A stretch of DNA of 64,000 nucleotides from Patescibacteria group bacterium. GTDB taxonomy: Bacteria > Patescibacteriota > Microgenomatia > UBA8517. Shown here piece after piece: positions 9,041 through 52,238 of the stretch (position 1 is the stretch's first letter; every line of letters starts with the position of its first letter). Where the stretch lies: contig JBGQJK010000001.1 in the NCBI GenBank assembly GCA_041499035.1, forward strand, positions 12,314-76,313. Reading direction: 5' to 3'. The notes beneath the pieces were generated by a model, which saw only the letters and a list, made by a program, of their open reading frames with translations, had not been told where the DNA came from and did not search any database. The translations under genes and the position numbers were made by a program.

Positions 9041-10255
9041 TTACTTGATTGTGAGTGTGTAAAGGTTAGGGGATGCCGTTCCGGCTCCCAGGTTGGTCAG
9101 AATTAGAAGTCTTGTTGTATTATTGAACGGGAAAGCAAAGGAACCTATATACGAACCCGAATAGACGGTTTCTTTATTTGTTCCGTCATAATCCATAATT
9201 ACTACCTGCCCGGGTTGGGCCAGCAAGAGCTGACGGCTGGTAGACATCCAGCGCAAAGCCGGAGTTTGTGAGCTATTAACTGTTAACTGTTGACTGTTTA
9301 GTATTACTTCTTGATTTGTTATCAAAAAATTACGATCTTCTTTGATATCATAAATATAGGTATGACCACTTTGAACTGCCCTTTCCTGTTTTTGGGTGGA
9401 GGCCCCGGGGAGCGGTTTTATTAAGTTATCCGATAAAGTGCCCGAGCCGCTGGCGGTATAAAGGATCATGTTTGCGTCCGGAGAAAAAACGAAATCGCGG
9501 GTTTTGCGGGTTAAAATGTCGGTTAGTTCTGGCGGCAAATTCCTAATTAGGCTAGTATCTTTTACCGACTTTTCCTGTTGCCATTCCGTAATAGTTGCGG
9601 CCTTCTGGCTTGCAATGTTTACCCTTTGATTTTGAGGGGTAAATAAACCGGTATCGAGTACAGATATACCGTTTGATGTTGTTAGCATTATCTGTCTGCC
9701 GTCAGGTGAAAACGAATAACTGGCGTTTGTCAGGTCCCCGTCTGTAATTCGCCTCGGGTCATTGGAAAATCCTAAAGGGAGCGAGAACGTGTCGAGTGTC
9801 CAAAGACCGATTTTATCATCAGTAACGCCGTCACCGGGGAGAACAGTATAGGTAATCTTGCCCCCGTCGGGTGACATTAAGGGGTTTGAGGCTCCAGAGA
9901 AAGTTGCGGGGGAAAGGGATGGAACGTTCCTAAAAAGTGAGACAGTAGCCTGGGTCACAATCTCCTTATCAATTGTCAGGCGTTTGTACCAGCTAAAATA
10001 ACCGTCCTTCCTTACTTCGACGTCGTAAACACCGGGGGAGAGTGAGACTGTTGCGTTTGTGGCAGTTTTCAGGCTACCGTCAATCAGTACCGAAGCTCCG
10101 TCAGGCTCCGACTTAATTACCAGGATTCCGTTTGGCTGGAATTTAAGACTTCTAAAATCAAATCTGTAGCCTCTGGCATAATATGACACAAAAGCCCCGA
10201 CCGTACCAACTATTAATATACTTACGATAAAGGCAAGGAGGCGGATTCTAGCCAT
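9041..10255 (-). CDS. membrane-anchored PEGA-domain / beta-propeller (TolB-like) protein
   Basis: An N-terminal TM helix, a PEGA-like segment (VLIDGSLKTATNATVSLSPGVYDVEVRKDGY) and a beta-rich C-terminal region. Confidence 0.5.
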   Translation of the reverse strand: MARIRLLAFIVSILIVGTVGAFVSYYARGYRFDFRSLKFQPNGILVIKSEPDGASVLIDGSLKTATNATVSLSPGVYDVEVRKDGYFSWYKRLTIDKEIVTQATVSLFRNVPSLSPATFSGASNPLMSPDGGKITYTVLPGDGVTDDKIGLWTLDTFSLPLGFSNDPRRITDGDLTNASYSFSPDGRQIMLTTSNGISVLDTGLFTPQNQRVNIASQKAATITEWQQEKSVKDTSLIRNLPPELTDILTRKTRDFVFSPDANMILYTASGSGTLSDNLIKPLPGASTQKQERAVQSGHTYIYDIKEDRNFLITNQEVILNSQQLTVNSSQTPALRWMSTSRQLLLAQPGQVVIMDYDGTNKETVYSGSYIGSFAFPFNNTTRLLILTNLGAGTASPNLYTLTIK

Positions 10256-18840: not shown

Positions 18841-20406
18841 GTGTTTAACCGAAGGCGCTTACCGATGGAAGTTGAGCTTGTGGTTTTAAGCTTCCTGGCA
18901 GTTTCTTTATTCACTTTTGCTTACTCATTACAAAACAATTCCCAAAAACCCCAAAAATCAAAAGCTGCAGGCAACACTTACTATGTTTCAACAGGCGGAA
19001 ACGACGCTAATCCAGGCTCGCTTGTCCTGCCTTTTGGAAGTCTAGCAAAAGTGGCCAGTGTGGCCAGAAGCGGAGACACAATTTTTGTAAGAGGCGGAAA
19101 TTATACCTCCGTTGTTGGCGGAGTTAAGTTTTCTGATAGTAATGTCACACTTCGTAATTATCCAGGCGAGCAGGTAGTTATCAAAATGCCTGCCGGGTCG
19201 CATAATAACGATTGGTCGATGTTCCAGTGCTGGCATTCCCCCCCAGGAACAGCGGCTGCAAATGGTTTTGAAGCTGATGGAATCAAAGTTCTTGGAACAG
19301 ACGTTAGCCCTCAAACTTTGCGCGACGGAGTTGTTAGTAAAAAAGGTATTGTTCTTTATACCGATCCGGGTCAATCAAATGCAACTGAAGCCAGTGGGTT
19401 TGAAGTCTCGGGTTGCAACAACTGGGAGGTTTCCGGCGTTGATTTTGTCGGGATGGGCTATGGCATTTTCCAAAAGAAGTGGCTCTACTCGTATGCAGGA
19501 ACAGGAGGGGTAAACTATGCAACTCATGGCTGGTACGTTCATAACAACCGTGTTTACGGCTATACACGGGAGTCCGGATTTCAATTCAATGGTAACTCAA
19601 ACTTAATTGAGAATAATGAGATTCATAAAGTTCTAACCTATACTAACAGTCCATATGGGTGTCAAGGTCTTAACCTACTCGGCCACGACAACATCGTCAG
19701 AAATAATACCATCGATATTTATGGCTCGCCGGTCAGGTGTGACGGAATTCTTTTTGAGTGGGACATCTCGGATAATAACCTCATCGAAAATAATATTATT
19801 TATGGCACCATCGGGTCTTCCTTTAATGTTCAGGGTGGGGATGGCAATATCATTCGTAATAATCAGATATCAAACGGCTACAATGTGTTTGCCCCAAACG
19901 GCAGTACGGCTACATCCTGGCCCTGTGATGAACTTGCTCCGGGTAACTCTGCCGCCTCAATTGTTCCCGCGAATAGCCCCGCAGCTACCGACTATCAGTA
20001 CTTTTGGAATCCCCGCGATTGTGCCTCAAGGAACAATCAATTTAGCGGCAATGTTGTAATACCACCGAGCGGAGTAGGTGGAAACCCTGTTCCTACACCG
20101 ACACCAACAAAAACTCCAAGCCCTACCCCAACGTTAACACCAACCCATACACCGTCGTCTTCACCTACAAAAACGCCTTCCCCTGGACCAAGCGGAACAG
20201 GAAGCCATACTCCCACACCAATTCCTACAGGAACCGCTAAAGTGGGGGATGTGAATGCCGATGGGCTAATTAATATCGTTGATATAGGGTTGATAATTGA
20301 CAATTATGGACAAAGAAACCCTTCATACGTAAAAACAGATGTTAACGGAGACGGCATAGTTAATATAATCGATATTGGCATCGTGATAGACAACTACGGT
20401 AAGTAA
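18841..20406 (+). CDS. secreted right-handed beta-helix (pectate-lyase fold) protein with a Pro/Thr linker and C-terminal class-1 dockerin-like module
   Basis: PbH1-type repeats (NNxIxxN...), a PTPTPTKTPSPTPT linker, and a C-terminal GDVNADGLINIVDIGLIIDNYG ... DVNGDGIVNIIDIGIVIDNYGK. Confidence 0.6.
   Translation: MFNRRRLPMEVELVVLSFLAVSLFTFAYSLQNNSQKPQKSKAAGNTYYVSTGGNDANPGSLVLPFGSLAKVASVARSGDTIFVRGGNYTSVVGGVKFSDSNVTLRNYPGEQVVIKMPAGSHNNDWSMFQCWHSPPGTAAANGFEADGIKVLGTDVSPQTLRDGVVSKKGIVLYTDPGQSNATEASGFEVSGCNNWEVSGVDFVGMGYGIFQKKWLYSYAGTGGVNYATHGWYVHNNRVYGYTRESGFQFNGNSNLIENNEIHKVLTYTNSPYGCQGLNLLGHDNIVRNNTIDIYGSPVRCDGILFEWDISDNNLIENNIIYGTIGSSFNVQGGDGNIIRNNQISNGYNVFAPNGSTATSWPCDELAPGNSAASIVPANSPAATDYQYFWNPRDCASRNNQFSGNVVIPPSGVGGNPVPTPTPTKTPSPTPTLTPTHTPSSSPTKTPSPGPSGTGSHTPTPIPTGTAKVGDVNADGLINIVDIGLIIDNYGQRNPSYVKTDVNGDGIVNIIDIGIVIDNYGK
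20089..20230 (+). repeat. Pro/Thr-linker-coding low-complexity repeat (also at 30880-31080, 31190-31320 and 47330-47420)
   Basis: ccNacNccNac periodicity encoding PTPTPTKTPSPTPT. Confidence 0.6.
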
Positions 20407-20472
20407 TTCACTTTACACTTTTCACGGAAAAGTTTAAGCTTAAATATATTCGTGTTAGCGAATGTGTTTGGT

Positions 20473-22251
20473 ATGGAAAAAAGTAAATATATATTTTTCG
20501 TATTTCTTATAACCGTTTTAGTAAGCCTTGCGTTTCCCCAATTTATCCGTGCCTCAGATCTCACAATTGATTTTTCCCAAGTAACTGGCCCAGCCGAGCG
20601 CCATGCCACGGGGTTTGAATGGATTTTTCCGATGAATGTAACGGCCATAGGACCTTATGTAAGTCAATTAAAGCCAAACATTGTCAAGGACCCGTGGGGG
20701 AATGAGCAAACTGCGAGAGATCTTGGCGCACATAAAATTCAATGGCTGGTAGGAAATGCGGTGGTTACTAAAAATGGACCGGGTACGCATTGGTATCCGT
20801 GGCAGGACTATGCTGTCTGGCAGGCGTGGGTGGCAGGTCGAATAAACAGTTTAACTCAAAACGGCCAACCTCATGAGTGGGTTATTTGGCAAGAGGCCAA
20901 CTACGGTAATCCTGATGTTTGGTCAGGCACACAGGACCAATTTTTTAATACATGGAAAATTGCCGTTCAAACTATCCGTAGCATACGCCCCACTGATCCA
21001 ATAGTAGGCCCAAGCCCGGTACCGTTTGATGCAACATATCTTGAGGCGTTCTTACTCTATGCCAAAGCCAATAATGTTTTGCCGGACGTTCTTTCCTGGC
21101 ACGAACTTACTGATATTGGAGGTACTGTTCCTGCTTTTAATATATATTCATACACCCCAGACCAAATACCCTCGCATGTTAATACAATGAAGCAATTTAT
21201 GCAGGCGAATGGTATAACTTTGGTTAACAGATTTGATATTACGGAATACCAGGGTTTTTCCGACAATTACCGCCCGGGCCCGACGGTTGCGTTTATTGCA
21301 GACCTCGAACGCGTTGGGGCAGAAGGCACAAAAGGGAATTGGGCGGATGCAAATCAACTCGAAGGGCTAGTTACAGATCCGAGTACACCACAACCCCGCT
21401 CAATCTGGTGGGTTTACAAAAAATATGCAGATATGACGGGGAACTTGGTGACGACAACATTATCCAGCGCTATTAACGGATTTGGGTCGTATGACGTCGG
21501 AATGGGAAAGGCGATGGTCCTTGCAGGAAATCAGGGTGGGAGTGGTGCACGTACAATCCAATTAAATAATATTCCTTCTGCTATTGTAAGCGGCGGTAGT
21601 GTAGCCCTTACCCTGGAGCAAATTCCAGATACGGAAAAGGCTGCACTTACCAGCCCAACTATAATAAGCCAGTCAAATATTCCTGTTAGCGGCAACTCAG
21701 TTACGGTTTCGATACCTTCATTTGGTACATGGGATGCCTACGTGATAACTCTTAAAAAACCACTTCCTAATCCAATTAAATCTGCTGTGATATCTGCCAC
21801 TACAGTCACTGCTAGATTCGATACAGTTAATGCCTCTGCGGGTGATTGGCTTGGGGTTTATAAAACCGGAGCTTCCAATACGAGTTTCCTTTCTTGGAAA
21901 TGGATTGACAATACCACTGGGCCCAAACCCACAACAGCCATTACAAACGGAACAGTAGTACTAACGGTTCCAAATTCTACGGAAACTTATGAGGTTAGAT
22001 ATTTTACTAATGGATATCAACTGCTCGGATCGGCAAAGGTAACCACCGGTACCGGTCCTAGTCCCACACCAATTTCGATTAAACCTGGGGATCTTAATGA
22101 TGACGGTAAAGTTGACATTTTCGATTACAACATTCTGGTTGGAGATTATGGAAAAATAGGCTCTGCAGGATTTGTTCCCTCTGACATTGACAAAAACGGG
22201 AAGGTGGATATTTTTGACTACAATTTGCTAGTTGCGAATTATGGTAAATAA
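20473..22251 (+). CDS. secreted clan GH-A-like glycoside hydrolase with a beta-sandwich module and C-terminal class-2 dockerin-like module
   Basis: Conserved leader MEKSKYIF; WQEAN (acid/base) and ITEYQG (nucleophile) motifs; C-terminal GDLNDDGKVDIFDYNILVGDYGK...DIDKNGKVDIFDYNLLVANYGK. The ORF track starts at 20452. Confidence 0.55.
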   Translation: MEKSKYIFFVFLITVLVSLAFPQFIRASDLTIDFSQVTGPAERHATGFEWIFPMNVTAIGPYVSQLKPNIVKDPWGNEQTARDLGAHKIQWLVGNAVVTKNGPGTHWYPWQDYAVWQAWVAGRINSLTQNGQPHEWVIWQEANYGNPDVWSGTQDQFFNTWKIAVQTIRSIRPTDPIVGPSPVPFDATYLEAFLLYAKANNVLPDVLSWHELTDIGGTVPAFNIYSYTPDQIPSHVNTMKQFMQANGITLVNRFDITEYQGFSDNYRPGPTVAFIADLERVGAEGTKGNWADANQLEGLVTDPSTPQPRSIWWVYKKYADMTGNLVTTTLSSAINGFGSYDVGMGKAMVLAGNQGGSGARTIQLNNIPSAIVSGGSVALTLEQIPDTEKAALTSPTIISQSNIPVSGNSVTVSIPSFGTWDAYVITLKKPLPNPIKSAVISATTVTARFDTVNASAGDWLGVYKTGASNTSFLSWKWIDNTTGPKPTTAITNGTVVLTVPNSTETYEVRYFTNGYQLLGSAKVTTGTGPSPTPISIKPGDLNDDGKVDIFDYNILVGDYGKIGSAGFVPSDIDKNGKVDIFDYNLLVANYGK

Positions 22252-22280
22252 GCGGAGCTTGAAACTTATGAAGTTATAAA

Positions 22281-24071
22281 ATGAAAAAAAGTAAATATAT
22301 TTTTACATTTCTTCTGACATTTGCTGTGGCTTTAGTTTTTCCATACTCGGCTCATGCCTCTGACCTCACAATTGATTTTTCCCAGACGATTGGTCCAGCT
22401 CAGCGTCGTGCCACAGGATTTGAATGGCTTTACTTTCCAAATATGAATGCCATGCGCCCGTTCATAACTCAGCTGAAACCAAATATTATTAAAGATCCCC
22501 GTACTGAAGGTTTGGGCTTAAGTCCCGATAACTTTGGCACCGCACGATTTCAGGATATAATTGGACTGGAATATGCTCTCTTTAATTCTTCGTTCGATGG
22601 CGTATGGCCCTACAAGGACTATACAAAATGGCAAACGTTCGTTCAGAATAAAGTAACTACCTTAACCGCAAACGGTACAAAGTATGACTGGGCTATTTGG
22701 CAGGAACCCGACCAAGAGCTAGGAATGCCTGGCGATTACATTGACAAGGCGGTTTGGTCAGGTACCAGAGACCAGTTCTTTGAAACTTGGAAAGTCGCCG
22801 TTCAAGCAGTCCGTCAGCTTCGCCCAAACGATAAGATCGTAGGACCAAGCCTTAAAAGATTCCGTCCGGATTATCTGCAAAGCTTCCTATTGTATGCTAA
22901 AGGTAATAATGTTCTTCCAGACATTCTCTCGTGGAACCAAGTTGGAACCTATATAGGGGAAAATGGACAAACACCTAATGATATTCCCCCTCAGGTGGCA
23001 ACGATACGTCAATTTATGCAAAGTAATGGCATTCCAAATATTCCGATAGAAATAACTGAATACGGCATGTTTAAAAGTGAATATCAACCGGGCTATGCAG
23101 TGGCTTATATTACGAATATTGAACAGTCGCAAATAGAAGGGTCGATTGGTCAATGGGGATGGAGTGGAGTTGGAGGTGTGGTTGGAGGTGAGGGCGGAGA
23201 TTTTCCCAGATTATCCGGTCTGATTACAGATCCGAATGCCCCCCAACCACGTTCGGTCTGGTGGGTTTACAAAAGCTATGCGGATATGACAGGTAATATT
23301 GTTAAAACTACCGCGGCAACAGTCATTAACGGACTTGGAAGTTACGATACAGCCACCAATACTGCCAAAGTGCTTATTGGGAATCAAGCAGGAGTGATAG
23401 GTTCTAAGACAATAACCCTTAAAGGTCTTCCACAGGCCCTGCAAGGAAATGGCAATGTTTTGGCTAAAATTGAACACATTCCAAATACTGAAAGTAATCC
23501 TTTATATGTACCTAACGGAGTCTCAGTAATTCTCTTACCCTTTAGCAATGGTAATGTTGCGGTTACCGTACCTAACGTCGGCACACTCGACGCCGCAGTA
23601 ATTACGATTACCAAGCCGCCAACTATAAGTGCGAATGTTTCGTCAAATCAAATAAATGTCAGTTTTAATAATTCAATCGCACTGACAAATGATTGGATTG
23701 GCATTTTTAAACCGGGGGATGCAGTCAATGCTTATTTGGATTGGAAATGGTTGAATAATGCCCAAGGCGCAGCCCCTTCGAGTCCCGTTACCAACGGTTC
23801 TGTTACTTTAACTTTGCCAGCTGCGGGTAATTATGAAGTACGTTATATAAATGCAGGGTCAGTTTTAGCAACAACAAATGTATCTGTTGGTTCAACTGCT
23901 AAGATTGGCGATCTTAATGGTGACGGCAAGGTAGATTTTTATGATTACAACATTTTTGTTCCGGACTATGGTAAAACCGGTGCTCCCGGTTTTGTTGTTT
24001 CCGATATAGATAAGAATGGCAAGGTAGACATTTTTGATTACAACATTTTGGTCGGTAATTACGGGAAATAG
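22281..24071 (+). CDS. paralogous secreted GH-A-like hydrolase with class-2 dockerin-like module
   Basis: MKKSKYIF leader, WQEPD and ITEYGM motifs, and the same C-terminal dockerin. Confidence 0.55.
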   Translation: MKKSKYIFTFLLTFAVALVFPYSAHASDLTIDFSQTIGPAQRRATGFEWLYFPNMNAMRPFITQLKPNIIKDPRTEGLGLSPDNFGTARFQDIIGLEYALFNSSFDGVWPYKDYTKWQTFVQNKVTTLTANGTKYDWAIWQEPDQELGMPGDYIDKAVWSGTRDQFFETWKVAVQAVRQLRPNDKIVGPSLKRFRPDYLQSFLLYAKGNNVLPDILSWNQVGTYIGENGQTPNDIPPQVATIRQFMQSNGIPNIPIEITEYGMFKSEYQPGYAVAYITNIEQSQIEGSIGQWGWSGVGGVVGGEGGDFPRLSGLITDPNAPQPRSVWWVYKSYADMTGNIVKTTAATVINGLGSYDTATNTAKVLIGNQAGVIGSKTITLKGLPQALQGNGNVLAKIEHIPNTESNPLYVPNGVSVILLPFSNGNVAVTVPNVGTLDAAVITITKPPTISANVSSNQINVSFNNSIALTNDWIGIFKPGDAVNAYLDWKWLNNAQGAAPSSPVTNGSVTLTLPAAGNYEVRYINAGSVLATTNVSVGSTAKIGDLNGDGKVDFYDYNIFVPDYGKTGAPGFVVSDIDKNGKVDIFDYNILVGNYGK

Positions 24072-24073
24072 TT

Positions 24074-25345
24074 ATGAAAAAGAGTAAATATATTTTTATA
24101 GGATTTGTTTTAATTGCTTTTGCAGAATTCGTCTTTCCGTCATCAGCTCGTGCAGTTTCAATTCAATCTCAAGTCGACGCCGCGCCAGCCGGTTCCACAA
24201 TTCTCATTCAACCGGGCACTTATAACGAAGTTGTAACAATTAATAAAGCTATCATTTTAAAATGTGCTACCCAGAAGACCTGCGTCACGCATAGCTTTAT
24301 CATTAACGGCAGCGGGGTAACTGTAGACGGGTTTTACAGTTTAGGCTCGAGTAACTATGAGGGTGCAATGATTGTAAATGGAAATTCCAACACTGTCTCC
24401 AACAATGTTATCGAAAGTGCCTGTATGGCGGGAATTGTAATCAAAGGGAGTAGTAACCTGGCCCTGAACAATGAAATCTTAAAATCCCGGCAATGCCCGG
24501 GGAGCGGATCTGACGCTGACGGAATACGGATTTTTGCCGACGGAAACGTTGCCCGGGGAAATTATATTCATAATATTTCTTCACTTCAAAACCCGACCGC
24601 CCACATTGACTGTTTCCAGTCATGGGGAACACTTACTAATGCAACTATTGAAAATAATTATTGTTACAATTTGGAATCAGGTACAACCGGAGCCGGTACT
24701 ACAGGAGTTCAAACTGATGTTGGCAACGTTCACAATATCACAATCCGCAATAATGTCTTCCGTGTTGCCCACGGCCTTAACATGAGGGGAGATGGTATCT
24801 CTGCTACGAATAACGTTTTTGTTGGGGATTATTACAACACATCTTATGTGTTTTTGGATGTAATTACAGGTGCAATCTTCAAAAATAACATTATTTATAA
24901 TACTACCAACGGAATAATAGTCGGCTCAGCCTATAAAACAGGAATTACCGGCGGATATAATATTATTTACAATGCCAACGGCGCCGCTCCGAGTCGGGAT
25001 AGCGCCTATTTTTCCTCAACCGATAAATGGCAAACCATGAATCCGGCATTTGTTAATGCGAATTCAGGAGATTTTCATTTGCAATCAGGTTCACCCGCTT
25101 GTTCCGCCGGGGAAAACGGAACCTATGCCGGCGCATATTCTTGCGGAAGCGGTACGAGCCCGGTACTTTCCGCCAAACCCGGTGATCTTAATAATGACGC
25201 AAAGGTGGATATTTTTGATTACAATCTACTGGTTGGGGATTATGGAAAAACCGGTTCAGCCGGCTTTGTTCCTTCCGATATCGATAAAAACGGTAAGGTG
25301 GATATCTTCGATTACAACATTCTGGTGGGGAATTATGGGAAATAA
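24074..25345 (+). CDS. secreted beta-helix repeat protein with class-2 dockerin-like module
   Basis: MKKSKYIF leader, parallel beta-helix repeats (GNSNTVSNNVIESA... NNEILKS...) and the C-terminal dockerin. Confidence 0.55.
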   Translation: MKKSKYIFIGFVLIAFAEFVFPSSARAVSIQSQVDAAPAGSTILIQPGTYNEVVTINKAIILKCATQKTCVTHSFIINGSGVTVDGFYSLGSSNYEGAMIVNGNSNTVSNNVIESACMAGIVIKGSSNLALNNEILKSRQCPGSGSDADGIRIFADGNVARGNYIHNISSLQNPTAHIDCFQSWGTLTNATIENNYCYNLESGTTGAGTTGVQTDVGNVHNITIRNNVFRVAHGLNMRGDGISATNNVFVGDYYNTSYVFLDVITGAIFKNNIIYNTTNGIIVGSAYKTGITGGYNIIYNANGAAPSRDSAYFSSTDKWQTMNPAFVNANSGDFHLQSGSPACSAGENGTYAGAYSCGSGTSPVLSAKPGDLNNDAKVDIFDYNLLVGDYGKTGSAGFVPSDIDKNGKVDIFDYNILVGNYGK

Positions 25346-25347
25346 TT

Positions 25348-27435
25348 ATGGAAAAGAATAAATACATTTTTATATTTCTTTTAGTTTTTTTAATGTCCGT
25401 TACTTTTCCCAAAAGTGCCCGCGCCGCACTTCAACCATTTGATATAACCACTCTTGATACCGGAGTTACGTATTACGCTTCTTTCGGCAGCTACAACCAA
25501 AAAATTGTCCAAAACCAGTATGGAATCTTTCTTACTTATAAAATAACGGACGACGCCAATGATAATGGCGTATGGCGACTCCTTAGAAGCATCGACGGCG
25601 GCAAGACTTTTAATAAAATTTATGAAGCCAACTATAATACAAAACCCCCGGTAGTTGAAACAGACGGCAGCGGCGTAATCTATTTGGCAACCGGAGGAAC
25701 GAATGTTTCGCTTTACAGATTTTTACCCCAGAATAATTTTGCAAACCCGGTAATTACTTCTATTCCAAATTCAGGTTCCGGAAAGATGTCAATGATTATT
25801 GATGAGAGACGGGGCCAGCTTTATTTTTTCTCCCACTACGCTTACTTTTCCATTATCGGACTTGACGGAACTATCAGGAAAAGTTATCAGCTGGGCTCGC
25901 CCTTTTGCGGCCCCAACGCCTGTTACCAATACCCCCTTTTAACTATGGACGAAAATGGCAACTTGATTGCCGCCTGGACAACTATAAAAAATGGTGCTTA
26001 TTTATACTGGGACATTCATTTTATTATTTCTAAAGACGGGGGAAACTCGTGGCAGAAGTTGGACGGGACGCATTTGAATTTGCCGCTTGTACCTGATAAC
26101 ACGGGGTCAACAGACCGCGTTACACTTGATGATGAATTTAATGTTCATACCTGGTTATCATCGGTTCTGGCCAAAAATGGCAAGATTTATTTTCCTTATC
26201 TGGCTCAATTCACTCCTTACAGACAGCATTTTGCCCGCTATGACCTCTCAACCGCAAAAAAGGATTTGGATGTAAATCCAGTTTGGAAGGGAGAAACACT
26301 ACAGATCGACACACTCCATGGGTTTTGTGCTACAAAACTTCAGCAGTCAACTTTTCCGATTTATTGCATAGGGAATGTGGGAGGAACCAAGATCGGAGTA
26401 ATTGTAAGTTCTGATCAGGGAGCAACCTGGCACGATTATGCCGAAAGCGTTTTTCCGGAAGATTCCATTCCATGGTCCATCGCCGGAGCTCGGGAAATTA
26501 CCCCCGACGGCTATATGATCGGAACCTATACCAGTGAAAAAAGTACGGATTTGAATAATTCACAAGTGCGTTTTTTCCGGGTGAAAGTTGGCAATTCGGT
26601 AGAACCAAGTCCTCCTGCCTTTTATTGGCCGATGGATGAAACAACTGGAAATATAGTTAATGAGGTATCCAGCATTTATAATGGCACCACAACTGCGGGA
26701 GTAGTAGACGGGAAAATCGGTAAGGCCAGAAATTTCATTTCCACGGCCTGGACCAATAGCACCAGGTTGCAGTTTCCTCTTTTTGACGGGAATATTAACA
26801 CCAAATCTGGATTTTCCGTTGAAGCCTGGATAAAAAAGAATAGCAGTAGTGCCCTTTATGAACACCGTGTTATCGGCAACAGGTACAACTGGAATGACGC
26901 AAACGGCTGGTACCTTACATTCCCGACAAATGAAAATATTGCCTTTTCCGTTCAATCGATGAGTAACCCTTCGGCAAATTTATATTCGACTCAGCCCATC
27001 GCACCCGGTACTTGGTACCACGTAGTTGGAGTTTATGATAATGGAACAATAAAGTTATACATTAACGGTGTTTTGGACGGAACCTTAGCCGGAGTAAGCT
27101 ACACCCCATCTTATCGTGAGTTGACAATCGGGGGGCAGCCCGACACAACTAATTATGGTTTTGACGGCATTATTGATGAAGTTCATTTTTATCCGTTTGC
27201 TCTCTCAGCAGATATAGTCAAGCAGCATTACCTTGGTTCCGGTTCAGTCCCAACACCCATTCCTAAACCTGGAGACCTGAATAACGACGGCAAGGTGGAT
27301 TTTTACGATTACAATATTTTTGTTGGGGATTACGGCAAAACAGGAGTCGCCAGTTTTGTTCCCTCCGATATCGACAAAAACGGCAAGGTGGATTTTTACG
27401 ATTACAATATATTAGTAGGGAATTACGGAAAATAA
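25348..27435 (+). CDS. secreted BNR-repeat (sialidase-like propeller) + LamG/ConA-like lectin domain protein with class-2 dockerin-like module
   Basis: BNR motifs SIDGGKTF, SKDGGNSW and SSDQGATW; a LamG_3-like segment (FSVEAWIKK...WYHVVGVYDNGTIKLYINGV); and the dockerin. Confidence 0.55.
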   Translation: MEKNKYIFIFLLVFLMSVTFPKSARAALQPFDITTLDTGVTYYASFGSYNQKIVQNQYGIFLTYKITDDANDNGVWRLLRSIDGGKTFNKIYEANYNTKPPVVETDGSGVIYLATGGTNVSLYRFLPQNNFANPVITSIPNSGSGKMSMIIDERRGQLYFFSHYAYFSIIGLDGTIRKSYQLGSPFCGPNACYQYPLLTMDENGNLIAAWTTIKNGAYLYWDIHFIISKDGGNSWQKLDGTHLNLPLVPDNTGSTDRVTLDDEFNVHTWLSSVLAKNGKIYFPYLAQFTPYRQHFARYDLSTAKKDLDVNPVWKGETLQIDTLHGFCATKLQQSTFPIYCIGNVGGTKIGVIVSSDQGATWHDYAESVFPEDSIPWSIAGAREITPDGYMIGTYTSEKSTDLNNSQVRFFRVKVGNSVEPSPPAFYWPMDETTGNIVNEVSSIYNGTTTAGVVDGKIGKARNFISTAWTNSTRLQFPLFDGNINTKSGFSVEAWIKKNSSSALYEHRVIGNRYNWNDANGWYLTFPTNENIAFSVQSMSNPSANLYSTQPIAPGTWYHVVGVYDNGTIKLYINGVLDGTLAGVSYTPSYRELTIGGQPDTTNYGFDGIIDEVHFYPFALSADIVKQHYLGSGSVPTPIPKPGDLNNDGKVDFYDYNIFVGDYGKTGVASFVPSDIDKNGKVDFYDYNILVGNYGK

Positions 27436-27455
27436 GCGGAGCTTGTTAGAATATC

Positions 27456-28691
27456 ATGAAAAAAATATTATTCTGTTTCATAGTTTTCTTTATAGGTATC
27501 TCATCGATAGCTGTCACACCTGTCTATGCCGCTTTAGGGGATGCTACTATTACACATAATGGTGCTACTGTAACCACCCAAGCTTCTTTTGCCGGTGGTA
27601 TTACGTCGCTCAAATACCAAAATTTTGAATACATCTTTCAGCAAATATATCAAGGCGCTTTCATTCAGTATGCCTGGCAAAACGGCAACCACGGAGAGTG
27701 TTTTAATCCTACAGAACAGGGCGCTAAATGTGATTCTGAGGGGAAAACCACTTCTATACTCCAAAATTTTAGCTCTACAAGTACCAGCATTACCAAAACG
27801 GTTTTACCATCCTACTGGCTTAGCCCGGAAGCAACAAATACTTATTGCCATACAAGCCAATACTGTAATATTGATCAGGAAAACCACGCAGGAACAGCGG
27901 TTAATACGACGGCAGTTAGTAATAGCAGCTTGCAGACAACATTTACTCTTGATCCCGAAAATCTTCCCCACGCGCTCGGCCTAACAGGAACGATTACGTT
28001 TGGATCCACAGATACAGATCCGGGTTTGCCTTTTGTTATGCTTGCGCCGTCGCACTTTTTTTCCACCGCATTTACCAAATCCTACCGCTATAATTATGGA
28101 AACGGTGCACTTCTTCCCCCAACAGTGGGCAATTACTGGAACACGACATTACCCCCGGTGCTGGCAACAACAGATGACGCTCACGCAGTCAGCGTCTATT
28201 CAGCCGGCGTTCCGCGAATGATTCCCCTCTCCCTCCCCCAAACGACACCCAACAACATTACTGGTTATACGCTAAATCACCTCACTTCCCCCACGGACTT
28301 GTGGGAGTTGGACATCCGCCTTCCCTACGTGCCGCCGGGGAATACTACCGCAATTACTCCCGGCATGAAACTGTCCATACGTTCATATGTCGTTTTTGGT
28401 ACGCTTTCCGAAGTCACAGCACAACTCCACGCGTTATACCTGGCACATCCCCCGATTGCCGATAATTGCATGGGAATAGCCTGGAAGGGCAAATATGCAG
28501 CCACAGATTGTCCTGTCCCGCTTCCCGGAGATTTAAACGGTGACGGCAAGGTGGATATTTTTGATTACAATATTTTGGTTGGGGATTACGGAAAGACAGG
28601 TTCTGCCGGTTTCGTTCTTTCCGATATCGACAAAAACGGCAAAGTGGATATTTTTGACTACAACTTGCTTGTTGGAAATTATGGAAAATAG
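27456..28691 (+). CDS. secreted beta-rich protein of unknown function with class-2 dockerin-like module
   Basis: A signal peptide and the C-terminal GDLNGDGKVDIFDYNILVGDYGK...DIDKNGKVDIFDYNLLVGNYGK. Confidence 0.5.
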   Translation: MKKILFCFIVFFIGISSIAVTPVYAALGDATITHNGATVTTQASFAGGITSLKYQNFEYIFQQIYQGAFIQYAWQNGNHGECFNPTEQGAKCDSEGKTTSILQNFSSTSTSITKTVLPSYWLSPEATNTYCHTSQYCNIDQENHAGTAVNTTAVSNSSLQTTFTLDPENLPHALGLTGTITFGSTDTDPGLPFVMLAPSHFFSTAFTKSYRYNYGNGALLPPTVGNYWNTTLPPVLATTDDAHAVSVYSAGVPRMIPLSLPQTTPNNITGYTLNHLTSPTDLWELDIRLPYVPPGNTTAITPGMKLSIRSYVVFGTLSEVTAQLHALYLAHPPIADNCMGIAWKGKYAATDCPVPLPGDLNGDGKVDIFDYNILVGDYGKTGSAGFVLSDIDKNGKVDIFDYNLLVGNYGK

Positions 28692-28693
28692 AC

Positions 28694-30274
28694 ATGAAAA
28701 AGCGTAAATGTATTTTTTGGGCATTTTTTCTAACCTTATTCGCCAGTTTTGTTTTTCCTGTTTCAGCCCATGCGGCTATCTATTATCTTTCAACAAACGG
28801 AAATGACAACAGCCCCGGTAGTCAGGCCTCTCCCTGGCTCAGTCCAAACCACGCGGTTAGTTGCGGGGACACGATTTTAGCTGCTCCGGGACTTTCGTAT
28901 GCAGCGTCGAATTTTGCCGGCGGTAAATGGGGAAATGTAAACTGTCCTGCAGGGAATAATGTCGCCTGGCTTAAATGCGCGACGTTCGGTACCTGCAAAG
29001 TCATCGGGACGGGGTATGACGCAATACGCGTCAGCGCGAGTTACTGGGGAGTGCAGGGCTTTGAAGCTACTAATGCAACAGGGGCATGCTTCACGGCTAC
29101 GCCAACCGGTAGTTCGATGATTCATCATATTATTTTTGCAAACAATATAGCCAATGGTTGCCAAAATAACGGTTTTAGTTCCTACCCTTTTTATGCAGGA
29201 ACCGCGCCGCCCAGCGTTGATTATCTGGCAATTATAGGTAACCTTGCCTACAATGCAGCCGGTGGAAATAGTTATTGTTTTAGCGGTATTTCCGTCTATG
29301 AACCCAGGAATTTTGATACTGCTCCGGGCACGCACGTTTATATTGCCCAGAATATTTCCTGGTCGAACAATGATGGTCAATACTGTCCGGGTAATAGCGA
29401 TGGCGAGGGGATTATTTTAGACGACTGGAAAGGGGACCAGTCAGGTTATACTACAGGTTATTCCGGTCAGGGTGTTGTCGAAAACAACCTGGTTCTGGGT
29501 AACGGCAGTGCCGGAATCGAGCCGTTTCATAATTCGGTAGCCTCGATAATTATCCGGAATAATACGTCGTATGCCAATAACACAGATTTACATCATGCAG
29601 GAACGTATCTGGGAGAAATTCTGATCAGCCTCTCATCGTTCATAACTGTGAAATACAATATTGTCCATTCCATAGTGGCAACCTGCTGCGCATCTCATTA
29701 TCCGGTCTTTGCTCTCTATGTCGGATCGTCTGACAATACTAATATACTTGATTATAATTGGGTCTATAGTATTTCGGGAAACAATACGGGTATCAATGCT
29801 TCTCCTGGCTTTTCCTTTGGCAGTCATCAAACGTTTGGTATCAATCCGGGCTTTGTAAATCCTTTGGTTCCGGGAGCACCGAACTGCAGCGGCACCTCGA
29901 GCACACTAGATTGTATGAAGACAACGCTCGCAAATTTTGTGCCTTCCGCGTCAGGAATATCCGGATATGGTTATCAGCCGGTAACCGGTGCTTACTTATC
30001 GAATTCTTATTATCCCTCATGGCTCTGCAATGTAACAATTCCGAGTGGTATTATTTCCAATTATTGTTTGCCCACAGGTTCAGTTCCAACCCCTGTTCCA
30101 GTTATTCCAGGCGACCTTAATGGTGACGGCAAAGTGGACTTTTACGATTACAATCTTTTTGTAGGGGACTACGGGAAAACCGGCTCACCCGGCTTTGTTC
30201 CTTCCGATATCGACAAAAACGGCAAAGTTGATATTTTTGATTACAATTTACTTGTTGCAAATTATGGGAAGTGA
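28694..30274 (+). CDS. secreted beta-helix protein with class-2 dockerin-like module
   Basis: MKKRKCIF leader, repeats similar to the 18841 and 24074 proteins, and the dockerin. Confidence 0.55.
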   Translation: MKKRKCIFWAFFLTLFASFVFPVSAHAAIYYLSTNGNDNSPGSQASPWLSPNHAVSCGDTILAAPGLSYAASNFAGGKWGNVNCPAGNNVAWLKCATFGTCKVIGTGYDAIRVSASYWGVQGFEATNATGACFTATPTGSSMIHHIIFANNIANGCQNNGFSSYPFYAGTAPPSVDYLAIIGNLAYNAAGGNSYCFSGISVYEPRNFDTAPGTHVYIAQNISWSNNDGQYCPGNSDGEGIILDDWKGDQSGYTTGYSGQGVVENNLVLGNGSAGIEPFHNSVASIIIRNNTSYANNTDLHHAGTYLGEILISLSSFITVKYNIVHSIVATCCASHYPVFALYVGSSDNTNILDYNWVYSISGNNTGINASPGFSFGSHQTFGINPGFVNPLVPGAPNCSGTSSTLDCMKTTLANFVPSASGISGYGYQPVTGAYLSNSYYPSWLCNVTIPSGIISNYCLPTGSVPTPVPVIPGDLNGDGKVDFYDYNLFVGDYGKTGSPGFVPSDIDKNGKVDIFDYNLLVANYGK

Positions 30275-31497
30275 TAGTATTTAAAAGAATGGATACATTG
30301 GTTCTACGCAGTAAACTAAATCTCTTTTTTTCTTTTTTTAAAAGGAAAAAAGTGGCGGTTCCTATTATTTCTACTATTCTCACGATAGCAGTTGTTGTCA
30401 CGGGCGTTGCCTATATCCGCCAAAGGCAGGGACTCACTAAAGTTGGCGCGGCGGGTGTTGCTCTTCAGCTTCTTACAGCAAGTTCTACGGTAACTAAAGG
30501 TTCCGAGTTTAATGTTAATGTCTACATTGATACAAAAGGATTGGCCGTTACGGGTACACACTTAAGTGTTAAGTATGATCCGAATTTACTGCTTGGAGAA
30601 ACAATGACGGCAGGAACGGCTTTGCCGGTTGTATTTATTCCCGGACAAGTTTCCGCAGGCTCCGCAACCATTGATTTAGGTAGTACTCCCGCGGCTCCAC
30701 TTAACGGAACAGGAATCTTGGCAACAGTAAAGTTTAAAGTTTTAGGGCAGGGGACAACTACTGCCGTTTCAATGGATTCTTCAACCGGCGTTGCCGCTTT
30801 GGGACAGTCGGGTAACGTTGCGGGAACTCTACCTACTCTTAACCTGACGATTGCCGGTTTATCAACGCCCACGTCGACTCCGACCGCTACACCAACCCAC
30901 TCTCCTACGCCGACACCTTCCAAAACTCCTTCTCCCACACCAACCCCTACTAAAACTCCCACGCCTACGCCAACAAAAAGCCCATCGCCTACACCCACAC
31001 CGTCGAAAACACCAACACCTACTCCCAAACCGACGCCTACACCTAAACCAACTCCCACTCCTACCCCGGTGGCTCAGTGCAACAGTACTTGTACAACCAA
31101 TAGTAATTGTCCGTCAAACTTAATCTGCTCAGCAGGCAAGTGTAGAAATGCTGCCTGTACTGCTACGTTAAACTGTATTTGTGCTACGCCCACTCCCACA
31201 CCGAGTCCGACACCAACACCCACCCCCACGCCTACTCCGACACATTCTCCTACGCCTACACCATCACCCTCTCATTCCCCGGGAGCCTCGCCAACTGCCA
31301 GTCCATCTCCTTCAGGTATTGCTAAAGCGGGTGATGTTAACGGCGATGGCTTAGTTAACATTATCGATATAGGCATAATTATAGATAACTACGGGAAAAC
31401 TCCAGCAACAAGCAGCAACCCCAAAGCCGATATAAACGGCGACGGAATTATTAATATAGTTGATATCGGGGTAGTGGTAGATAACTACGGGAAGTAA
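30271..31497 (+). CDS. membrane-anchored scaffoldin-like protein: N-terminal TM, cohesin-like module, PT linker, Cys-rich module, PT linker, class-1 dockerin
   Basis: Cohesin-like hallmarks (LSVKYDPNLL ... ILATVKFKVLG); the Cys-rich stretch CNSTCTTNSNCPSNLICSAGKCRNAAC; and C-terminal GDVNGDGLVNIIDIGIIIDNYGK...DINGDGIINIVDIGVVVDNYGK. Confidence 0.55.
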   Translation: MIVFKRMDTLVLRSKLNLFFSFFKRKKVAVPIISTILTIAVVVTGVAYIRQRQGLTKVGAAGVALQLLTASSTVTKGSEFNVNVYIDTKGLAVTGTHLSVKYDPNLLLGETMTAGTALPVVFIPGQVSAGSATIDLGSTPAAPLNGTGILATVKFKVLGQGTTTAVSMDSSTGVAALGQSGNVAGTLPTLNLTIAGLSTPTSTPTATPTHSPTPTPSKTPSPTPTPTKTPTPTPTKSPSPTPTPSKTPTPTPKPTPTPKPTPTPTPVAQCNSTCTTNSNCPSNLICSAGKCRNAACTATLNCICATPTPTPSPTPTPTPTPTPTHSPTPTPSPSHSPGASPTASPSPSGIAKAGDVNGDGLVNIIDIGIIIDNYGKTPATSSNPKADINGDGIINIVDIGVVVDNYGK

Positions 31498-31505
31498 ACT
31501 TACAA

Positions 31506-31784
31506 TTATTTTGAAGTCCTCTGTTCTTGAACTCTGATAGTAATCTTACCAGTTGGTTGACCAGGAACCAGTAATGGGCAATAAAATGTATAGTACACCC
31601 CAGTGTGCTCTTGACTTCTGAAAAGACCTTCGTGTGCTGGATTGACCTTGGCTTTTGTAGCCAGAGCGTTTAGATCGATTGGCTCAGGCACGGTTTGGAC
31701 CAGCGATTTGAAAACATCCAAGTTACAGTTTCCAGGACATCCGGCACAGCGAGCAATATCTGCGACTAGTTCTGTAATAGCCAT
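31506..31784 (-). CDS. small DUF1858-like Cys protein (CxGCP ... IDLNAL)
   Basis: CAGCPGNC followed by an IDLNAL segment, resembling redox-disulfide DUF1858 proteins. Confidence 0.35.
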   Translation of the reverse strand: MAITELVADIARCAGCPGNCNLDVFKSLVQTVPEPIDLNALATKAKVNPAHEGLFRSQEHTGVYYTFYCPLLVPGQPTGKITIRVQEQRTSK

Positions 31785-36302: not shown

Positions 36303-37199
36303 ATGCGAAAAGTAACCTTTTTGATATTTTTAGTGGTTTTGAGCCTGAATCTGGCTCTTCCTAGCCGTGCTCTGGCCAGAGCTATTCCGACAATCAGTCC
36401 GTCCCCGGAGGCCAGCGCCAGCGCTACACCCGTAGCTACGGTAGCCCCCACGCCTGTTCCCGACATCACTCAAAAGACTCAGGAAACGCTGGGCCCGCTT
36501 GAACAGCTTCTTAAATCTCAAAACTTGGCCTCGGTTTGGCCATATAATCCGATTAAATATGCTATCCGCGGGGCGGTTGCCGCGGGGGTGCCTGCCAACA
36601 CAATAGTCCTTCTGCTCCTACTCCCAATCATGACTTTTGTTATTGCGTTCAGCCGGAATGTGGTCGGGATCAGGGGCTTTGGAATTTTCCTGCCGGCTGC
36701 CTTATCTGTCGTATTTGTGGCTACCGGGCCAATTGTCGGAATAGGGCTTTTCCTTATTATCGTTGCGGTTTCAACATTTCTCAGGCTGGTTCTTAGAAAA
36801 CTTAAGATTAAGCTCCAGTACTTGCCCAGAATGGCATTTATTCTTTGGGGAGTGGTTATAGGCGTACTTGGTGCGTTATTCCTGGCTTCATACTTACGAT
36901 TTACAGAGCTTAGTAATGTTTCCATTTTCGCGGTTCTTATCCTTGTTCTTCTTTCGGAAGACTTTACTAGGGTGCAACTTGGTAAAAGCGCCAAAACGGC
37001 GGTAAACCTGACATTCGAGACTTTACTACTTTCCCTTATTTCTTACTTCTTTTTGACGCTTAAGCCATTGCAGGAGTATGTGCTTCTTAACCCGGAAATC
37101 TCCCTTATTGGCGTTGCCGCGCTCGATCTACTTTTAGGTAAATATACGGGACTCAGGATCATGGAGTTTTACCGTTTCAGAAAACTAATAAATTCATGA
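36303..37199 (+). CDS. polytopic membrane protein (7TM-like), possible partner of the downstream ATP-grasp
   Basis: A signal peptide, a P/A/T-rich linker and about six or seven hydrophobic helices. Confidence 0.45.
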   Translation: MRKVTFLIFLVVLSLNLALPSRALARAIPTISPSPEASASATPVATVAPTPVPDITQKTQETLGPLEQLLKSQNLASVWPYNPIKYAIRGAVAAGVPANTIVLLLLLPIMTFVIAFSRNVVGIRGFGIFLPAALSVVFVATGPIVGIGLFLIIVAVSTFLRLVLRKLKIKLQYLPRMAFILWGVVIGVLGALFLASYLRFTELSNVSIFAVLILVLLSEDFTRVQLGKSAKTAVNLTFETLLLSLISYFFLTLKPLQEYVLLNPEISLIGVAALDLLLGKYTGLRIMEFYRFRKLINS

Positions 37200-37305
37200 G
37201 GCAGATTTACCATTTTTCATTTTCCACTTTCCATTTATTTTCTAATTTCCAATTGACAAATTACAAATAGATGGCAGATGACAGATTGAAAATCGAAAAT
37301 TAAAT

Positions 37306-38622: not shown

Positions 38623-39515
38623 TCGTGAAAAAAATATTGATTTTAACCAGTGGAAAAAAGAGCAAGCTCAGAGCTTTTAAATTGTCTCAACGCGACTTAA
38701 GTTTGGACCTGACAACGGCATCATTTAATGATGTCTATTTTGATTCGGGAAACCGTGAAGTATTTCTTAAAGGGAGAACGAATTTAAAAGCTTTTAATGT
38801 AATTTACTTCCGTTTGGTCGGGAAGTCGCTTGAAACGGCTGCGTTAGTTGCCGAGTATGCCAAGAGAAATAGAATACAAATTGTAGACAAAGTATATACT
38901 AAATCCCAAGTATTCCCCGTAACTCAGAGCAAGACTCAGGAAATGAAATCGTTATCAGATGCCAAAATCCCGATTCCCAAAACGTTCTTCGGGTCTCTGA
39001 CCCAAATTATCAAAAAATCTAAAGAAACCTTTGGATTTCCGTTTGTAATTAAAAGCACTTCGGGAAGCCGGGGACGCGAAGTATATAGTCCAAGGGACGG
39101 CGAAGAGCTTAAGAGTCTTGTTGGTATTCTTTCCAAGGAAGAAAAAGCCGGTAAAAAGTTTTTTGCTCAGGAATTTATCAATTGCACAAAAAGGGTTAGG
39201 GTACTCACCGTTGGAGGCAAAATAATGGGTTCGATTTCCCAGCTGACCAAATGGCGCAAGAGGGTTTCGGGTTACACGCCCCGGGAAGATGAAAAGAAGA
39301 TAGACAAGTTCTATCCTTCGAGTGACATGCAAAAGCTGGCTCTGTCTGCGGTCTCTGCCGTGGGGATCGATATTGCCGGGGTAGACATTTTAATTGACGA
39401 AAGAAGTGGCAGAAGTTTTGTCATTGAAGTTAACGCCGCCCCGAGTTGGAATTTAATTAAAAAATACTGCAAAGTTAATGTTGAATATGAAATCCTCAAA
39501 TTTATATCGAGATAA
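38613..39515 (+). CDS. RimK/LysX-family ATP-grasp peptide ligase
   Basis: FVIKSTSGSRGREV, RVLTVGGKIMG and VIEVNAAPSW. Confidence 0.6.
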   Translation: MEIVVKKILILTSGKKSKLRAFKLSQRDLSLDLTTASFNDVYFDSGNREVFLKGRTNLKAFNVIYFRLVGKSLETAALVAEYAKRNRIQIVDKVYTKSQVFPVTQSKTQEMKSLSDAKIPIPKTFFGSLTQIIKKSKETFGFPFVIKSTSGSRGREVYSPRDGEELKSLVGILSKEEKAGKKFFAQEFINCTKRVRVLTVGGKIMGSISQLTKWRKRVSGYTPREDEKKIDKFYPSSDMQKLALSAVSAVGIDIAGVDILIDERSGRSFVIEVNAAPSWNLIKKYCKVNVEYEILKFISR

Positions 39516-40089: not shown

Positions 40090-40113
40090 GCGAAGCTTGA
40101 AACTTATGAAGTT

Positions 40114-42231: not shown

Positions 42232-42244
42232 TGTTTTAAGTACA

Positions 42245-52221: not shown

Positions 52222-52238
52222 AACTATATATTAGTCTC

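Follow-up and report, generated by a model that had tools for sequence, protein, structure and literature searches.

A 64,000-nt stretch of the genome of a Patescibacteria group bacterium (GenBank assembly GCA_041499035.1, contig JBGQJK010000001.1, positions 12,314 to 76,313; hereafter the window) contains four copies, c1 to c4, of a short sequence upstream of start codons. The conserved unit is the 13-mer TAAGCGRAGCTTG (T-AAGC-GRA-GCTT-G). It very probably represents a dispersed, strand-specific repeat family present in some Patescibacteria, in which a three-codon open reading frame (ORF) encoding Met-Lys-Leu (the "MKL" mini-ORF), noticed earlier at two of the copies, is incidental. The reading that we favour overall, with a probability of about 0.45, is that the family acts as a sense-strand cis-element for the downstream gene. 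The Patescibacteria, or candidate phyla radiation (CPR), comprise a large share of bacterial diversity, and to our knowledge their gene expression is largely uncharted. The strict conservation and tandem amplification of a 13-nt hairpin before unrelated genes make it, as judged from sequence, a candidate lineage-specific expression signal. The element appears to be undescribed so far; the literature searched yielded nothing relevant on a CPR repeat of this kind, on leaderless usage in the CPR or on CPR NusG paralogues.

Copies in the window and in relatives

Copies c1 (TAAGCGGAGCTTGAAACTTATGAAGTTAT, 22249–22277) and c2 (40087–40115) are identical at 28 of 29 positions, the lone mismatch being G to A at motif position 7. 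When up to three mismatches were allowed, the 29-mer matched the window exactly twice, at c1 and c2, and never in 100 dinucleotide-preserving shuffles. The repeated junction sequence reported in a preliminary description of this DNA is thus real, and its partial copy, c3, is an exact TAAGCGGAGCTTG; the start of c2 on the plus strand is corrected from 40088 to 40087. A fourth exact TAAGCGGAGCTTG, c4, lies on the minus strand and had been overlooked. The core GCGRAGCTTG occurs four times in the window against 0.16 expected, and chance origin of c1–c4 was rejected on this count, the 29-mer shuffles and the exact 13-mer copies. Neither the remainder of the window nor the 7.5 kb that follow it yielded decayed copies. 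GCGNAGC heptamers number 26 in the window versus about 18 by a rough composition-based estimate, an agreement that rules out a general enrichment of heptamers with a GNA loop. Those outside ORFs are the four motif copies, one antisense over the hairpin downstream of c4, and a stemless one at 62148.

The upstream regions of c1 and c3 are alike (~80% identity), as both follow paralogous dockerin 3' ends, and the likeness stops right after the 13-mer. Because the c3 13-mer is contiguous with the shared dockerin 3' end, the two copies may stem from one duplication, in which case c3 would not be independent. The genes upstream of c1 and c2 are unrelated, and the likeness spans exactly the interval from the stop codon to the next start codon. 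In an in-register comparison, the surroundings of c4 are unrelated to those of c1–c3.

A metagenome scan with an 18-mer query returned 64 loci, which is about the number given by a rough chance estimate, and about 30 of the 45 distinct hits were set aside as unrelated (high-GC, coding or from other taxa). Thirteen distinct low-GC loci extend the similarity beyond the 18-mer and fall into four families, A to D (Table 1); they hold extra exact 13-mers where about 0.005 would be expected. Exact 13-mers were counted 22 times in 17 loci across many contigs, some in tandem arrays of up to four copies.

All 22 exact copies are intergenic, and none of them lies in a convergent spacer. At every copy for which the downstream gene could be called (18/18), the 13-mer is on the sense strand, co-oriented with that gene and 10–118 nt before its start, the distance being mostly 10–35 nt and most often 14 or 23 nt. 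The upstream gene, callable at 16 loci, is co-directional at 13 and divergent at three. The settings comprise junctions between operon genes, divergent promoter regions, the L10 leader and a 16S rRNA insertion that precedes a homing-endonuclease ORF. The TAA of the motif doubles as a stop codon in c1, c2, c3, L068 and L013 (L numbers denote loci outside the window). The downstream genes are mutually unrelated and encode YchF, S6, SecE, L10, a DksA/TraR-type protein, a LAGLIDADG endonuclease, a flavin adenine dinucleotide (FAD) oxidoreductase, membrane and secreted proteins, RimK-like proteins and dockerin enzymes. Leaders or junctions of the long operons rplJL, secE-nusG-rplKA and rpsF, of the dcw cluster and of the dockerin array carry the element. 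The preliminary view of a junction element agrees with the larger set, in which the element marks gene junctions and 5' ends non-randomly and each credible copy closely precedes a co-oriented start codon. GC skew is positive throughout the window, and c1–c3 on the plus strand and c4 on the minus strand thus share one replichore; the orientation therefore follows transcription and not replication, which rules out a replication-oriented signal of a single-stranded DNA (ssDNA) transposon or primase.

Three pairs of copies at orthologous positions (c2/L007, c4/L038 and L013/L068) span deep divergence, with 13/13 identity retained at 60–73% protein identity. The RimK junction of L007, whose RimK-like protein is 73% identical in amino acids to that of the window, reads TAAGCGAAGCTTGAAACT followed by GTTGTTATG and is identical to c2 over 18/18 nt. 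There the motif TAA is not a stop codon, and an extra ORFan gene (203 aa, 6663–7274), inserted before the last ligase gene, lies directly upstream of the motif. In L024, four tandem copies with a period of 28–31 nt are located between rsmH and an ftsL-like gene, and the 31-mer before the latter, a gene unrelated to the RimK-like one, is identical to that of c2. The arrays upstream of ychF and of rpsF in L063 are homologous to each other.

This distribution bears on the proposal, made from the window alone, that the shared junction is a recombination footprint left by a specific event that linked the dockerin array with the ATP-grasp locus. The 28/29 identity of c1 and c2 between unrelated flanks would suit such an event. 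However, the module is found at many unrelated loci and in other organisms (the 13-mer at at least 17 loci), the orthologous RimK junction of L007 already has it, and the ATP-grasp and dockerin loci share no other sequence. The footprint is unnecessary because the 31-mer of c2 precedes an unrelated gene in L024, and we consider it most improbable.

The 13-mer, hairpin 2 and the MKL mini-ORF

The 13-mer is predicted to fold into a 5-bp stem with a closing U·G pair and a G-N-A triloop (U-AAGC [G-R-A] GCUU-G). Its only variable base is the middle N of the loop (GAA in 14 and GGA in eight of the 22 exact copies), and all copies fit the heptamer GCGNAGC (GCGAAGC 14, GCGGAGC 8). The hairpin is also kept in three degenerate copies: TAAGTAAAACTTG by a compensatory C:G to T:A change, TAAAGCGTGAGCTTG with a GUGA loop, which corresponds to the 8-mer form GCGNNAGC, and TAAGCAAAGCTTG with an AAA loop. 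An A precedes the 13-mer in 18 of the 22 copies, and the 5' flank is often rich in A (A4 in several). Rfam gave no family at gathering score for the motif, the sole weak match being L10_leader in the context of c4. A CsrA-type GGA hairpin site was ruled out because most copies carry GAA. Complementarity of the element to 16S rRNA, as in an epsilon-like enhancer, was not above that of shuffles at the partial 16S coverage available.

The usual 3' neighbour of the 13-mer, AAACTT...GTTAT, forms a small second hairpin with a variable top (hairpin 2). Its AAC/GTT base is constant and it grows symmetrically, from AAC-TTC-GTT through AACT-TTC-AGTT to AACTT-ATG-AAGTT. The spacers of the arrays are terminally self-complementary (P = 0.014–0.1 each; about 4e-4 by Fisher combination of five independent spacers), and within arrays the GCUUG of one unit can pair with UAAGC in the following one, so that the spacer hairpin is enclosed. 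The minimum free energy of the L024 array has a z score of −3.2. Long hairpins of the family D type have the loop CUUGAAA, which might conceivably mimic the anticodon arm of tRNA-Ser(UGA). In this family, L045 (2440–2600, minus strand) and L025 (1180–1310, minus strand) share a conserved module of three hairpins, with covariation, before different genes (secE and a gene for a 239-aa membrane protein, respectively). Hairpin H1 combines variable stems with a CTTGA loop, the 13-mer is part of H2, and H3 is ATTCCGGA/TCCGGAAT in one of the two loci and ATTCCTGC/GCAGGAAT in the other. The whole module closes with GGAATGACA, which includes an ATG that is the gene start in L025 and lies ahead of the secE start in L045.

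The geometry of the mini-ORF was described correctly: in c1 its TAA stop is followed after 1 nt by ATG 22281, and in c2 its TGA overlaps ATG 40114. The role proposed for it was a relay, in which ribosomes that have reached the upstream stop would be handed on by the three codons, through coupling or re-initiation, to the start of the next gene. As in known relay mini-ORFs, ATG-AAG-TTA-stop in c1, c2 and L024 either overlaps the next start or leaves a gap of 1 nt before it. Moreover, GGAG stands 10 nt before the mini-ORF ATG of c1, L016 has GTG, in-frame TTG codons in L007 and L013 are potential starts, and the organism uses tight stop-start coupling elsewhere. As a conserved device, however, the mini-ORF does not survive the comparison. 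The start triplet is ATG in c1, c2 and L024, GTG in L016 and ATA in L068 and L033; L007 offers only a possible TTG-TTA-TGA and L013 a possible TTG start. Most copies lack the mini-ORF, since c3, c4 and families B, C and D keep the 13-mer without it. A Shine-Dalgarno (SD) sequence for the mini-ORF was ruled out because GGAG occurs only in c1 and c3 (c2 has GAAG) and the organism shows no SD enrichment. The variable triplet behaves as a hairpin loop (RTR) between conserved complementary arms. Because the start triplet varies or the mini-ORF is missing across copies, sequence comparison indicates that the mini-ORF is not the selected feature and that the MKL triplet is the loop of the variable hairpin AACTT-NNN-AAGTT; a ribosome relay is accordingly hardly probable. 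Gene callers and motif finders would overlook such an element or mis-annotate it, as with the "MKL ORF".

Table 1 Copies of the element in the window and families of related loci.
Feature	Sequence or composition	Position or loci	Strand	Remarks
c1 mini-hairpin (13 nt)	TAAGC-GGA-GCTTG	22249–22261	+	TAA is the stop of the dockerin/GH39-like gene 20452–22251
c1 hairpin 2	AACTT-ATG-AAGTT, then TATAAA	22263–22280	+	Holds the MKL mini-ORF 22268–22279; adjoins ATG 22281 of the next dockerin/GH39-like gene
c2 mini-hairpin	TAAGC-GAA-GCTTG	40087–40099	+	TAA is the stop of the methyltransferase gene 39478–40089
c2 hairpin 2	AACTT-ATG-AAGTT	40101–40116	+	Next gene is the third RimK-like gene, 40114–41025
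c3 mini-hairpin	TAAGC-GGA-GCTTG	27433–27445	+	TAA is the stop of gene 25348–27435
c3 junction	13-mer, then TTAGAATATC, then ATG 27456		+	Without hairpin 2 and without mini-ORF
c4 mini-hairpin	TAAGC-GGA-GCTTG	42317–42329	−	In the rplJ (L10) leader
L10 (rplJ) leader RNA		42238–42370	−	Hosts c4; RF00557 match below the Rfam gathering score, and conserved core
Family A	13-mer + AAACTT-NNN-AAGTT + ATG	L016, L024, L033, L068, L013, L034 (= L007)
Family B	13-mer + AAACTTTCAGT + TATAAT/TATACT + 6 nt + ATG	L014, L037, L063
Family C	Second L10 leader, motif in the same apical loop	L038
Family D	TATAAGCGRAGCTTGAAACTTCGTTATAG, longer hairpin between covarying neighbour hairpins	L045 (upstream of secE), L025, L049

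Candidate functions and known hairpin signals

SD-like motifs precede 6 of 64 genes, compared with 7.2 ± 2.5 at random positions, in agreement with the earlier remark that the organism lacks strong SD sequences. Strong −10-like hexamers are found 4–18 nt before the ATG of 15 of 64 genes, compared with 2.9 ± 1.7 at random. They read TATAAT, often TGnTATAAT, with examples at 9041–10255 (−), 17501, 31506–31784 (−), 45154, 49928 and 55240. The absence of SD enrichment together with strong −10 boxes 5–10 nt before the ATG in about a quarter of the genes implies that leaderless or very short-leader mRNAs are widespread in this organism. Canonical TTGACA-N16–18-TATAAT promoters are also present in the window. 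A sigma-70 reading of the element itself, with TTGAAA as −35 and TATAAA/TATAAG as −10, was ruled out by a spacing of 6–10 nt in place of 16–18. Operon-internal genes mostly overlap or lie 0–3 nt apart, and the junctions at c1–c3, which are 29, 24 and 20 nt long, are exceptions to this tight spacing.

For the favoured cis-element, we tentatively suggest a mechanism at the RNA level. In the transcript, the element would form a compact stem-loop that is recognised sequence-specifically just 5' of SD-less start codons. Its likeliest mode would be that of a protein-binding handle or a structural insulator that permits or tunes initiation, or an effect on the stability of the downstream cistron. It would be used where tight stop-start coupling or a leaderless 5' end is unavailable, and the MKL triplets would be incidental loop and stem bases of hairpin 2. 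The invariant U·G closing pair, the GNRA-type loop variants and the covariation of the same-strand neighbour hairpins in L045 and L025 are consistent with action as RNA. A protein-read RNA hairpin of comparable build is boxB of the lambdoid nut (N utilisation) sites, which has a 5-bp stem and a GNRA-like pentaloop, is accompanied by boxA, and is read by a protein that modifies transcription complexes. The resemblance, by analogy only, lies in the sequence-specific 5-bp stem, the small purine-rich loop and the location within a 5' leader or directly behind a stop codon; the element differs in having no boxA and no evidence of an N-like protein.

Further support for the RNA level comes from copies inside transcribed structured RNAs, namely the apical loop of the L10 leader in two lineages and a 16S insertion. 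Copy c4 is located between rplA and rplJ, inside an L10 leader that matches RF00557 over its full length with 25.4 bits (E = 0.024; the gathering score is 44). The c4 13-mer sits in a 42-nt insertion where the RF00557 consensus has 17 nt, a lineage-specific insertion in the apical part of the first hairpin of the leader. The leader core, CCUAAGAAAG...CCGAGG, is common to six relatives upstream of rplJ, all six without the 13-mer. The L10 leader of L038 has the motif in the same apical loop, and its L10 protein is 60% identical in amino acids to that of the window. The rplJ start (ATG at 42231, minus strand) is directly preceded by a terminator-like hairpin, CGCGC-CTCGAAA-GCGCG, plus U7 (42232–42300), against which CGAGG/CCTCG is a possible rival pairing. 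An attenuator-type L10 leader is missing in several relatives, which carry GAGGA near the ATG instead. In L049 (1–925), an ORF for a LAGLIDADG homing endonuclease (Pfam, E = 3e-19) lies in an insertion before the last ~55 nt (AAGTCGTAACAAGG...) of the 16S rRNA gene; the 13-mer is 118 nt upstream of the ORF, and a one-mismatch variant, TAAGCGGAGCTTC, is found in the 16S–23S spacer at position 1040.

Several observations weigh against this interpretation. As RNA, the 13-mer and hairpin 2 are predicted to be only marginally stable (−1.5 kcal/mol and −0.7 kcal/mol or less, respectively), and the near-absolute conservation of the 13-mer leaves almost no covariation within it. At the same junctions, the closer relatives L006 and L009 use tight coupling and have no such element. 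In family B (L014, L037 and L063), a TATAAT box stands 6 nt before the ATG, with the 13-mer a further 11 nt upstream of the box; these copies may therefore lie upstream of the transcription start and be untranscribed. Finally, the core is a DNA-stability motif, and its natural analogues (phage N4 promoters, ops and single-strand initiation (ssi) signals) act as single-stranded DNA. The main rivals of the RNA-level reading are a selfish or neutral mini-repeat and an ops-like signal in non-template DNA.

As a selfish or neutral mini-repeat, the element would spread by insertion, gene conversion and tandem duplication, persist where it is tolerated and have no dedicated function, much like miniature inverted-repeat transposable elements (MITEs) or the sequences known as repetitive extragenic palindromes (REP) and their bacterial interspersed mosaic elements (BIMEs). 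REP sequences are imperfect palindromes of about 20–40 nt with a conserved 5' GTAG-like tetranucleotide and are mobilised by REP-associated tyrosine transposases (RAYTs). Like them, the element consists of short dispersed intergenic hairpins, forms arrays with variable linkers, is patchy among relatives and occurs near stop codons. The patchiness is such that the element is present in the window and in the distant L038 and L007 and absent from the closer L006, L008 and L009. Comparison of the L038 and L006 leaders suggests a clean 24-nt insertion, TAAGCGGAGCTTGAAACTTCGTTA, bounded by TA, and a 20-nt unit is tandemly duplicated in L013 relative to its orthologue L068. A composite block, 13-mer-GCCAGTTAARGCCCTGG-13-mer, recurs in non-orthologous loci, and the insertions into structural RNAs (the L10 leader and 16S rRNA) and the unrelated downstream genes would also suit a selfish repeat.

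Unlike REP sequences, however, the element is only 13 nt long, with an A-rich 5' flank and no GTAG. Its copies are direct rather than alternating, and they are strictly 5'-proximal and co-oriented, also in divergent promoter regions. A repeat without function would not readily account for the co-orientation of 18/18 callable copies with a nearby downstream start, for the lack of copies in convergent 3' spacers, or for the 13/13 identity at orthologous sites. The orientation tracks transcription, in contrast to replication-tracking relatives of ssDNA (HUH) transposons, and a unit of 13–24 nt is far below the size of known mobile repeats. No transposase or RAYT was seen in the ~71 kb of genome inspected. 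We thus regard a selfish origin as somewhat unlikely. If it applied, the family would be among the smallest dispersed repeat families described and a useful marker of genome dynamics in Patescibacteria.

The core of the element exactly fits the mini-hairpin DNA motif of Hirao et al., GCGNAGC or GCGNNAGC, in which two G-C pairs enclose a G-N-A loop with a sheared G·A pair (PMC13037366). The GCGAAGC/GCGGAGC core varies only at the loop N, as this motif permits. GCGNAGC is extraordinarily stable as DNA and much less so as RNA, and nearest-neighbour models miss the stability of the DNA form (PMC13037366); nearest-neighbour folding of the 13-mer gives only −1.6 kcal/mol. The two differ in that the mini-hairpin is a class from physical chemistry, whereas the element is a genomic repeat at gene 5' ends whose TAA...TTG flanks are invariant too, and in that the element may act as RNA, the less stable form.

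Among the natural hairpins of this kind, ops (GGCGGTAGnnTG) forms in the non-template strand and is followed by a pause-inducing TG; it recruits RfaH, which brings the 30S subunit to SD-less leaders (PMC5995543). Acting like ops, the element would recruit a factor, of the NusG family or another, to suppress termination, to load SD-less mRNAs with ribosomes, or both. The layout of the element, GCG-R-AG-CT-TG, is that of ops, GCG-GT-AG-nn-TG, minus one loop base and on the same (sense, non-template) strand. T12-G13 at its 3' end, a pausing site by analogy, is invariant. Its place in leaders and junctions of long operons, in an organism without SD enrichment, and the DNA-stable mini-hairpin core are in line with such a role. 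However, the flipped T6 read by RfaH is missing from the shorter loop, A stands in place of G1 (AGCG-R-AGCTTG), and the consensus-pause G at −10 is absent (A3). The conserved 5-bp stem is longer than that of ops and too long for a 10–11 nt bubble (PMC5995543). Tandem copies, start codons only 10–25 nt away and an occurrence between every few genes are also unlike ops, which occurs once per operon leader. The sole NusG in the window (44266–44901) is the housekeeping one; no RfaH-like or specialised NusG paralogue was identified in the ~71 kb of genome inspected, and none in the literature searched for the phylum. An ops-like role is therefore unlikely.

The second comparison is with the early promoters P1–P3 of phage N4, which we extracted from EF056009 (template strand): CCATAA-GTTGC-GAA-GCAAC, CCAAAA-GAAGC-GGA-GCTTC and CCAAAA-GCTGC-GGA-GCAGC, respectively. 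N4 hairpins have a 5–7 bp stem and a 3-nt loop. Their determinants are the purine at −11, central in the loop, and G at −8 (PMC4496689; PMC13037366). AAAA-TAAGC-GRA-GCTTG is identical to the P2 hairpin, GAAGC-GGA-GCTTC, at 11/13 positions, with an A-rich 5' tract in both (CCAAAA in N4), and it has the 5-bp stem (outer pair T·G), the GRA loop and the equivalents of both determinants. The element might therefore be a DNA-level promoter hairpin, that is, either an N4-type single-strand promoter or primase signal on the GRA strand, or a cruciform (extruded by supercoiling) or operator through which a neighbouring sigma-70-type promoter is modulated. Its palindrome, AAGC-N3-GCTT, and its position exactly 11 nt upstream of the TATAAT box of a leaderless start in four promoters would fit this.

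The differences from N4 are considerable, and we judge this reading quite unlikely. The N4 hairpin is on the template strand and fires away from its 5' side, whereas the GRA strand of the element is the sense strand in 18/18 callable copies. At 13/16 callable loci the upstream gene is co-directional, and transcription from an N4-like start would enter it antisense. The template base at the N4-equivalent +1 varies among copies, while N4 conserves −4 to +1 (AAAA or ATAA, then C at +1). The outer stem bases vary in N4 and are invariant in the element. The element resides in a cellular genome, no single-subunit RNA polymerase was found in the ~71 kb inspected, and the viral scan gave no related phage. 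As a duplex, the palindrome has just 4 bp per arm, with T1 and G13 unpaired on the other strand; it fits neither the −35 hexamer nor its spacing, and a symmetric double-stranded operator would not give the 18/18 orientation bias. For copies within operons and in the L10 leader, there is no promoter on which such a hairpin could act.

Near-identity to the N4 hairpin promoter and the ops-like layout tie the element to the few known GCG(N)NAGC hairpins read by the transcription machinery. A more speculative possibility, which we also rate as unlikely, is that sense-strand GCGRAGC is a genome-wide single-stranded signal like those of ops and N4. A dedicated factor would read it during transcription and pass the SD-less cistron to the ribosome or prevent termination. 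The signal would replace the SD sequence at genes that are neither leaderless nor tightly coupled, with tandem amplification where more output is needed.

Unrelated matches and gene neighbourhoods

Phage origin of the element was ruled out, as the 6 viral and 7 metagenome hits concerned represent one unrelated conserved coding region. There the 18-mer is antisense within freshwater phage contigs (L015, L022, L036, L046, L054, L061, L062 and L077–L082), and it appears to be unrelated to the element. Eight contigs from unrelated higher-GC organisms (L019, L040, L041, L048, L050, L053, L065 and L073; GC about 0.5–0.54) carry the 18-mer in another conserved, non-coding-looking sequence, ...ACCGCTT-TAAGCGAAGCTTGAAACT-GAAATGTCAGG... 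In the window, the spacer of a canonical promoter at 52198–52241 (+; TTGACA-N17-TATATA-N8-ATG), AAAGTCTGAGCTGAAAC, is similar to the motif (TAAGCGGAGCTTGAAAC, about 12/17), possibly by chance.

Around c2 there is a cluster of genes for 7TM-transglutaminase-like, three RimK/ATP-grasp and methyltransferase proteins. This ATP-grasp cluster (36303–41025, +), which encodes a 7TM_transglut protein, an ATPgrasp_ST domain fused to a RimB-like protease, two RimK-like ligases and a methyltransferase, is kept in relatives. Near c4, a Pro-rich ORF of 72 aa with no Pfam match (42393–42611, −) lies between rplA and the L10 leader. The L1 protein (42659–43471, −) has a Lys/Glu-rich N-terminal extension of ~75 aa, and relatives L010 and L011 align only from residues 70–79.

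The genes around c1 and c3 encode GH39-like and other enzymes with dockerin domains. They belong to an array of nine secreted-enzyme genes with C-terminal dockerin modules (18841–31497, +), in which 30271–31497 combines cohesin and dockerin. GC skew falls to about 0 or to negative values across 24–34 kb, unlike the rest of the window. A separate gene for a cohesin protein is located at 47011–48144 (−). The dockerin array and the cohesin protein constitute a cellulosome-like cohesin-dockerin system in a Patescibacteria metagenome-assembled genome.

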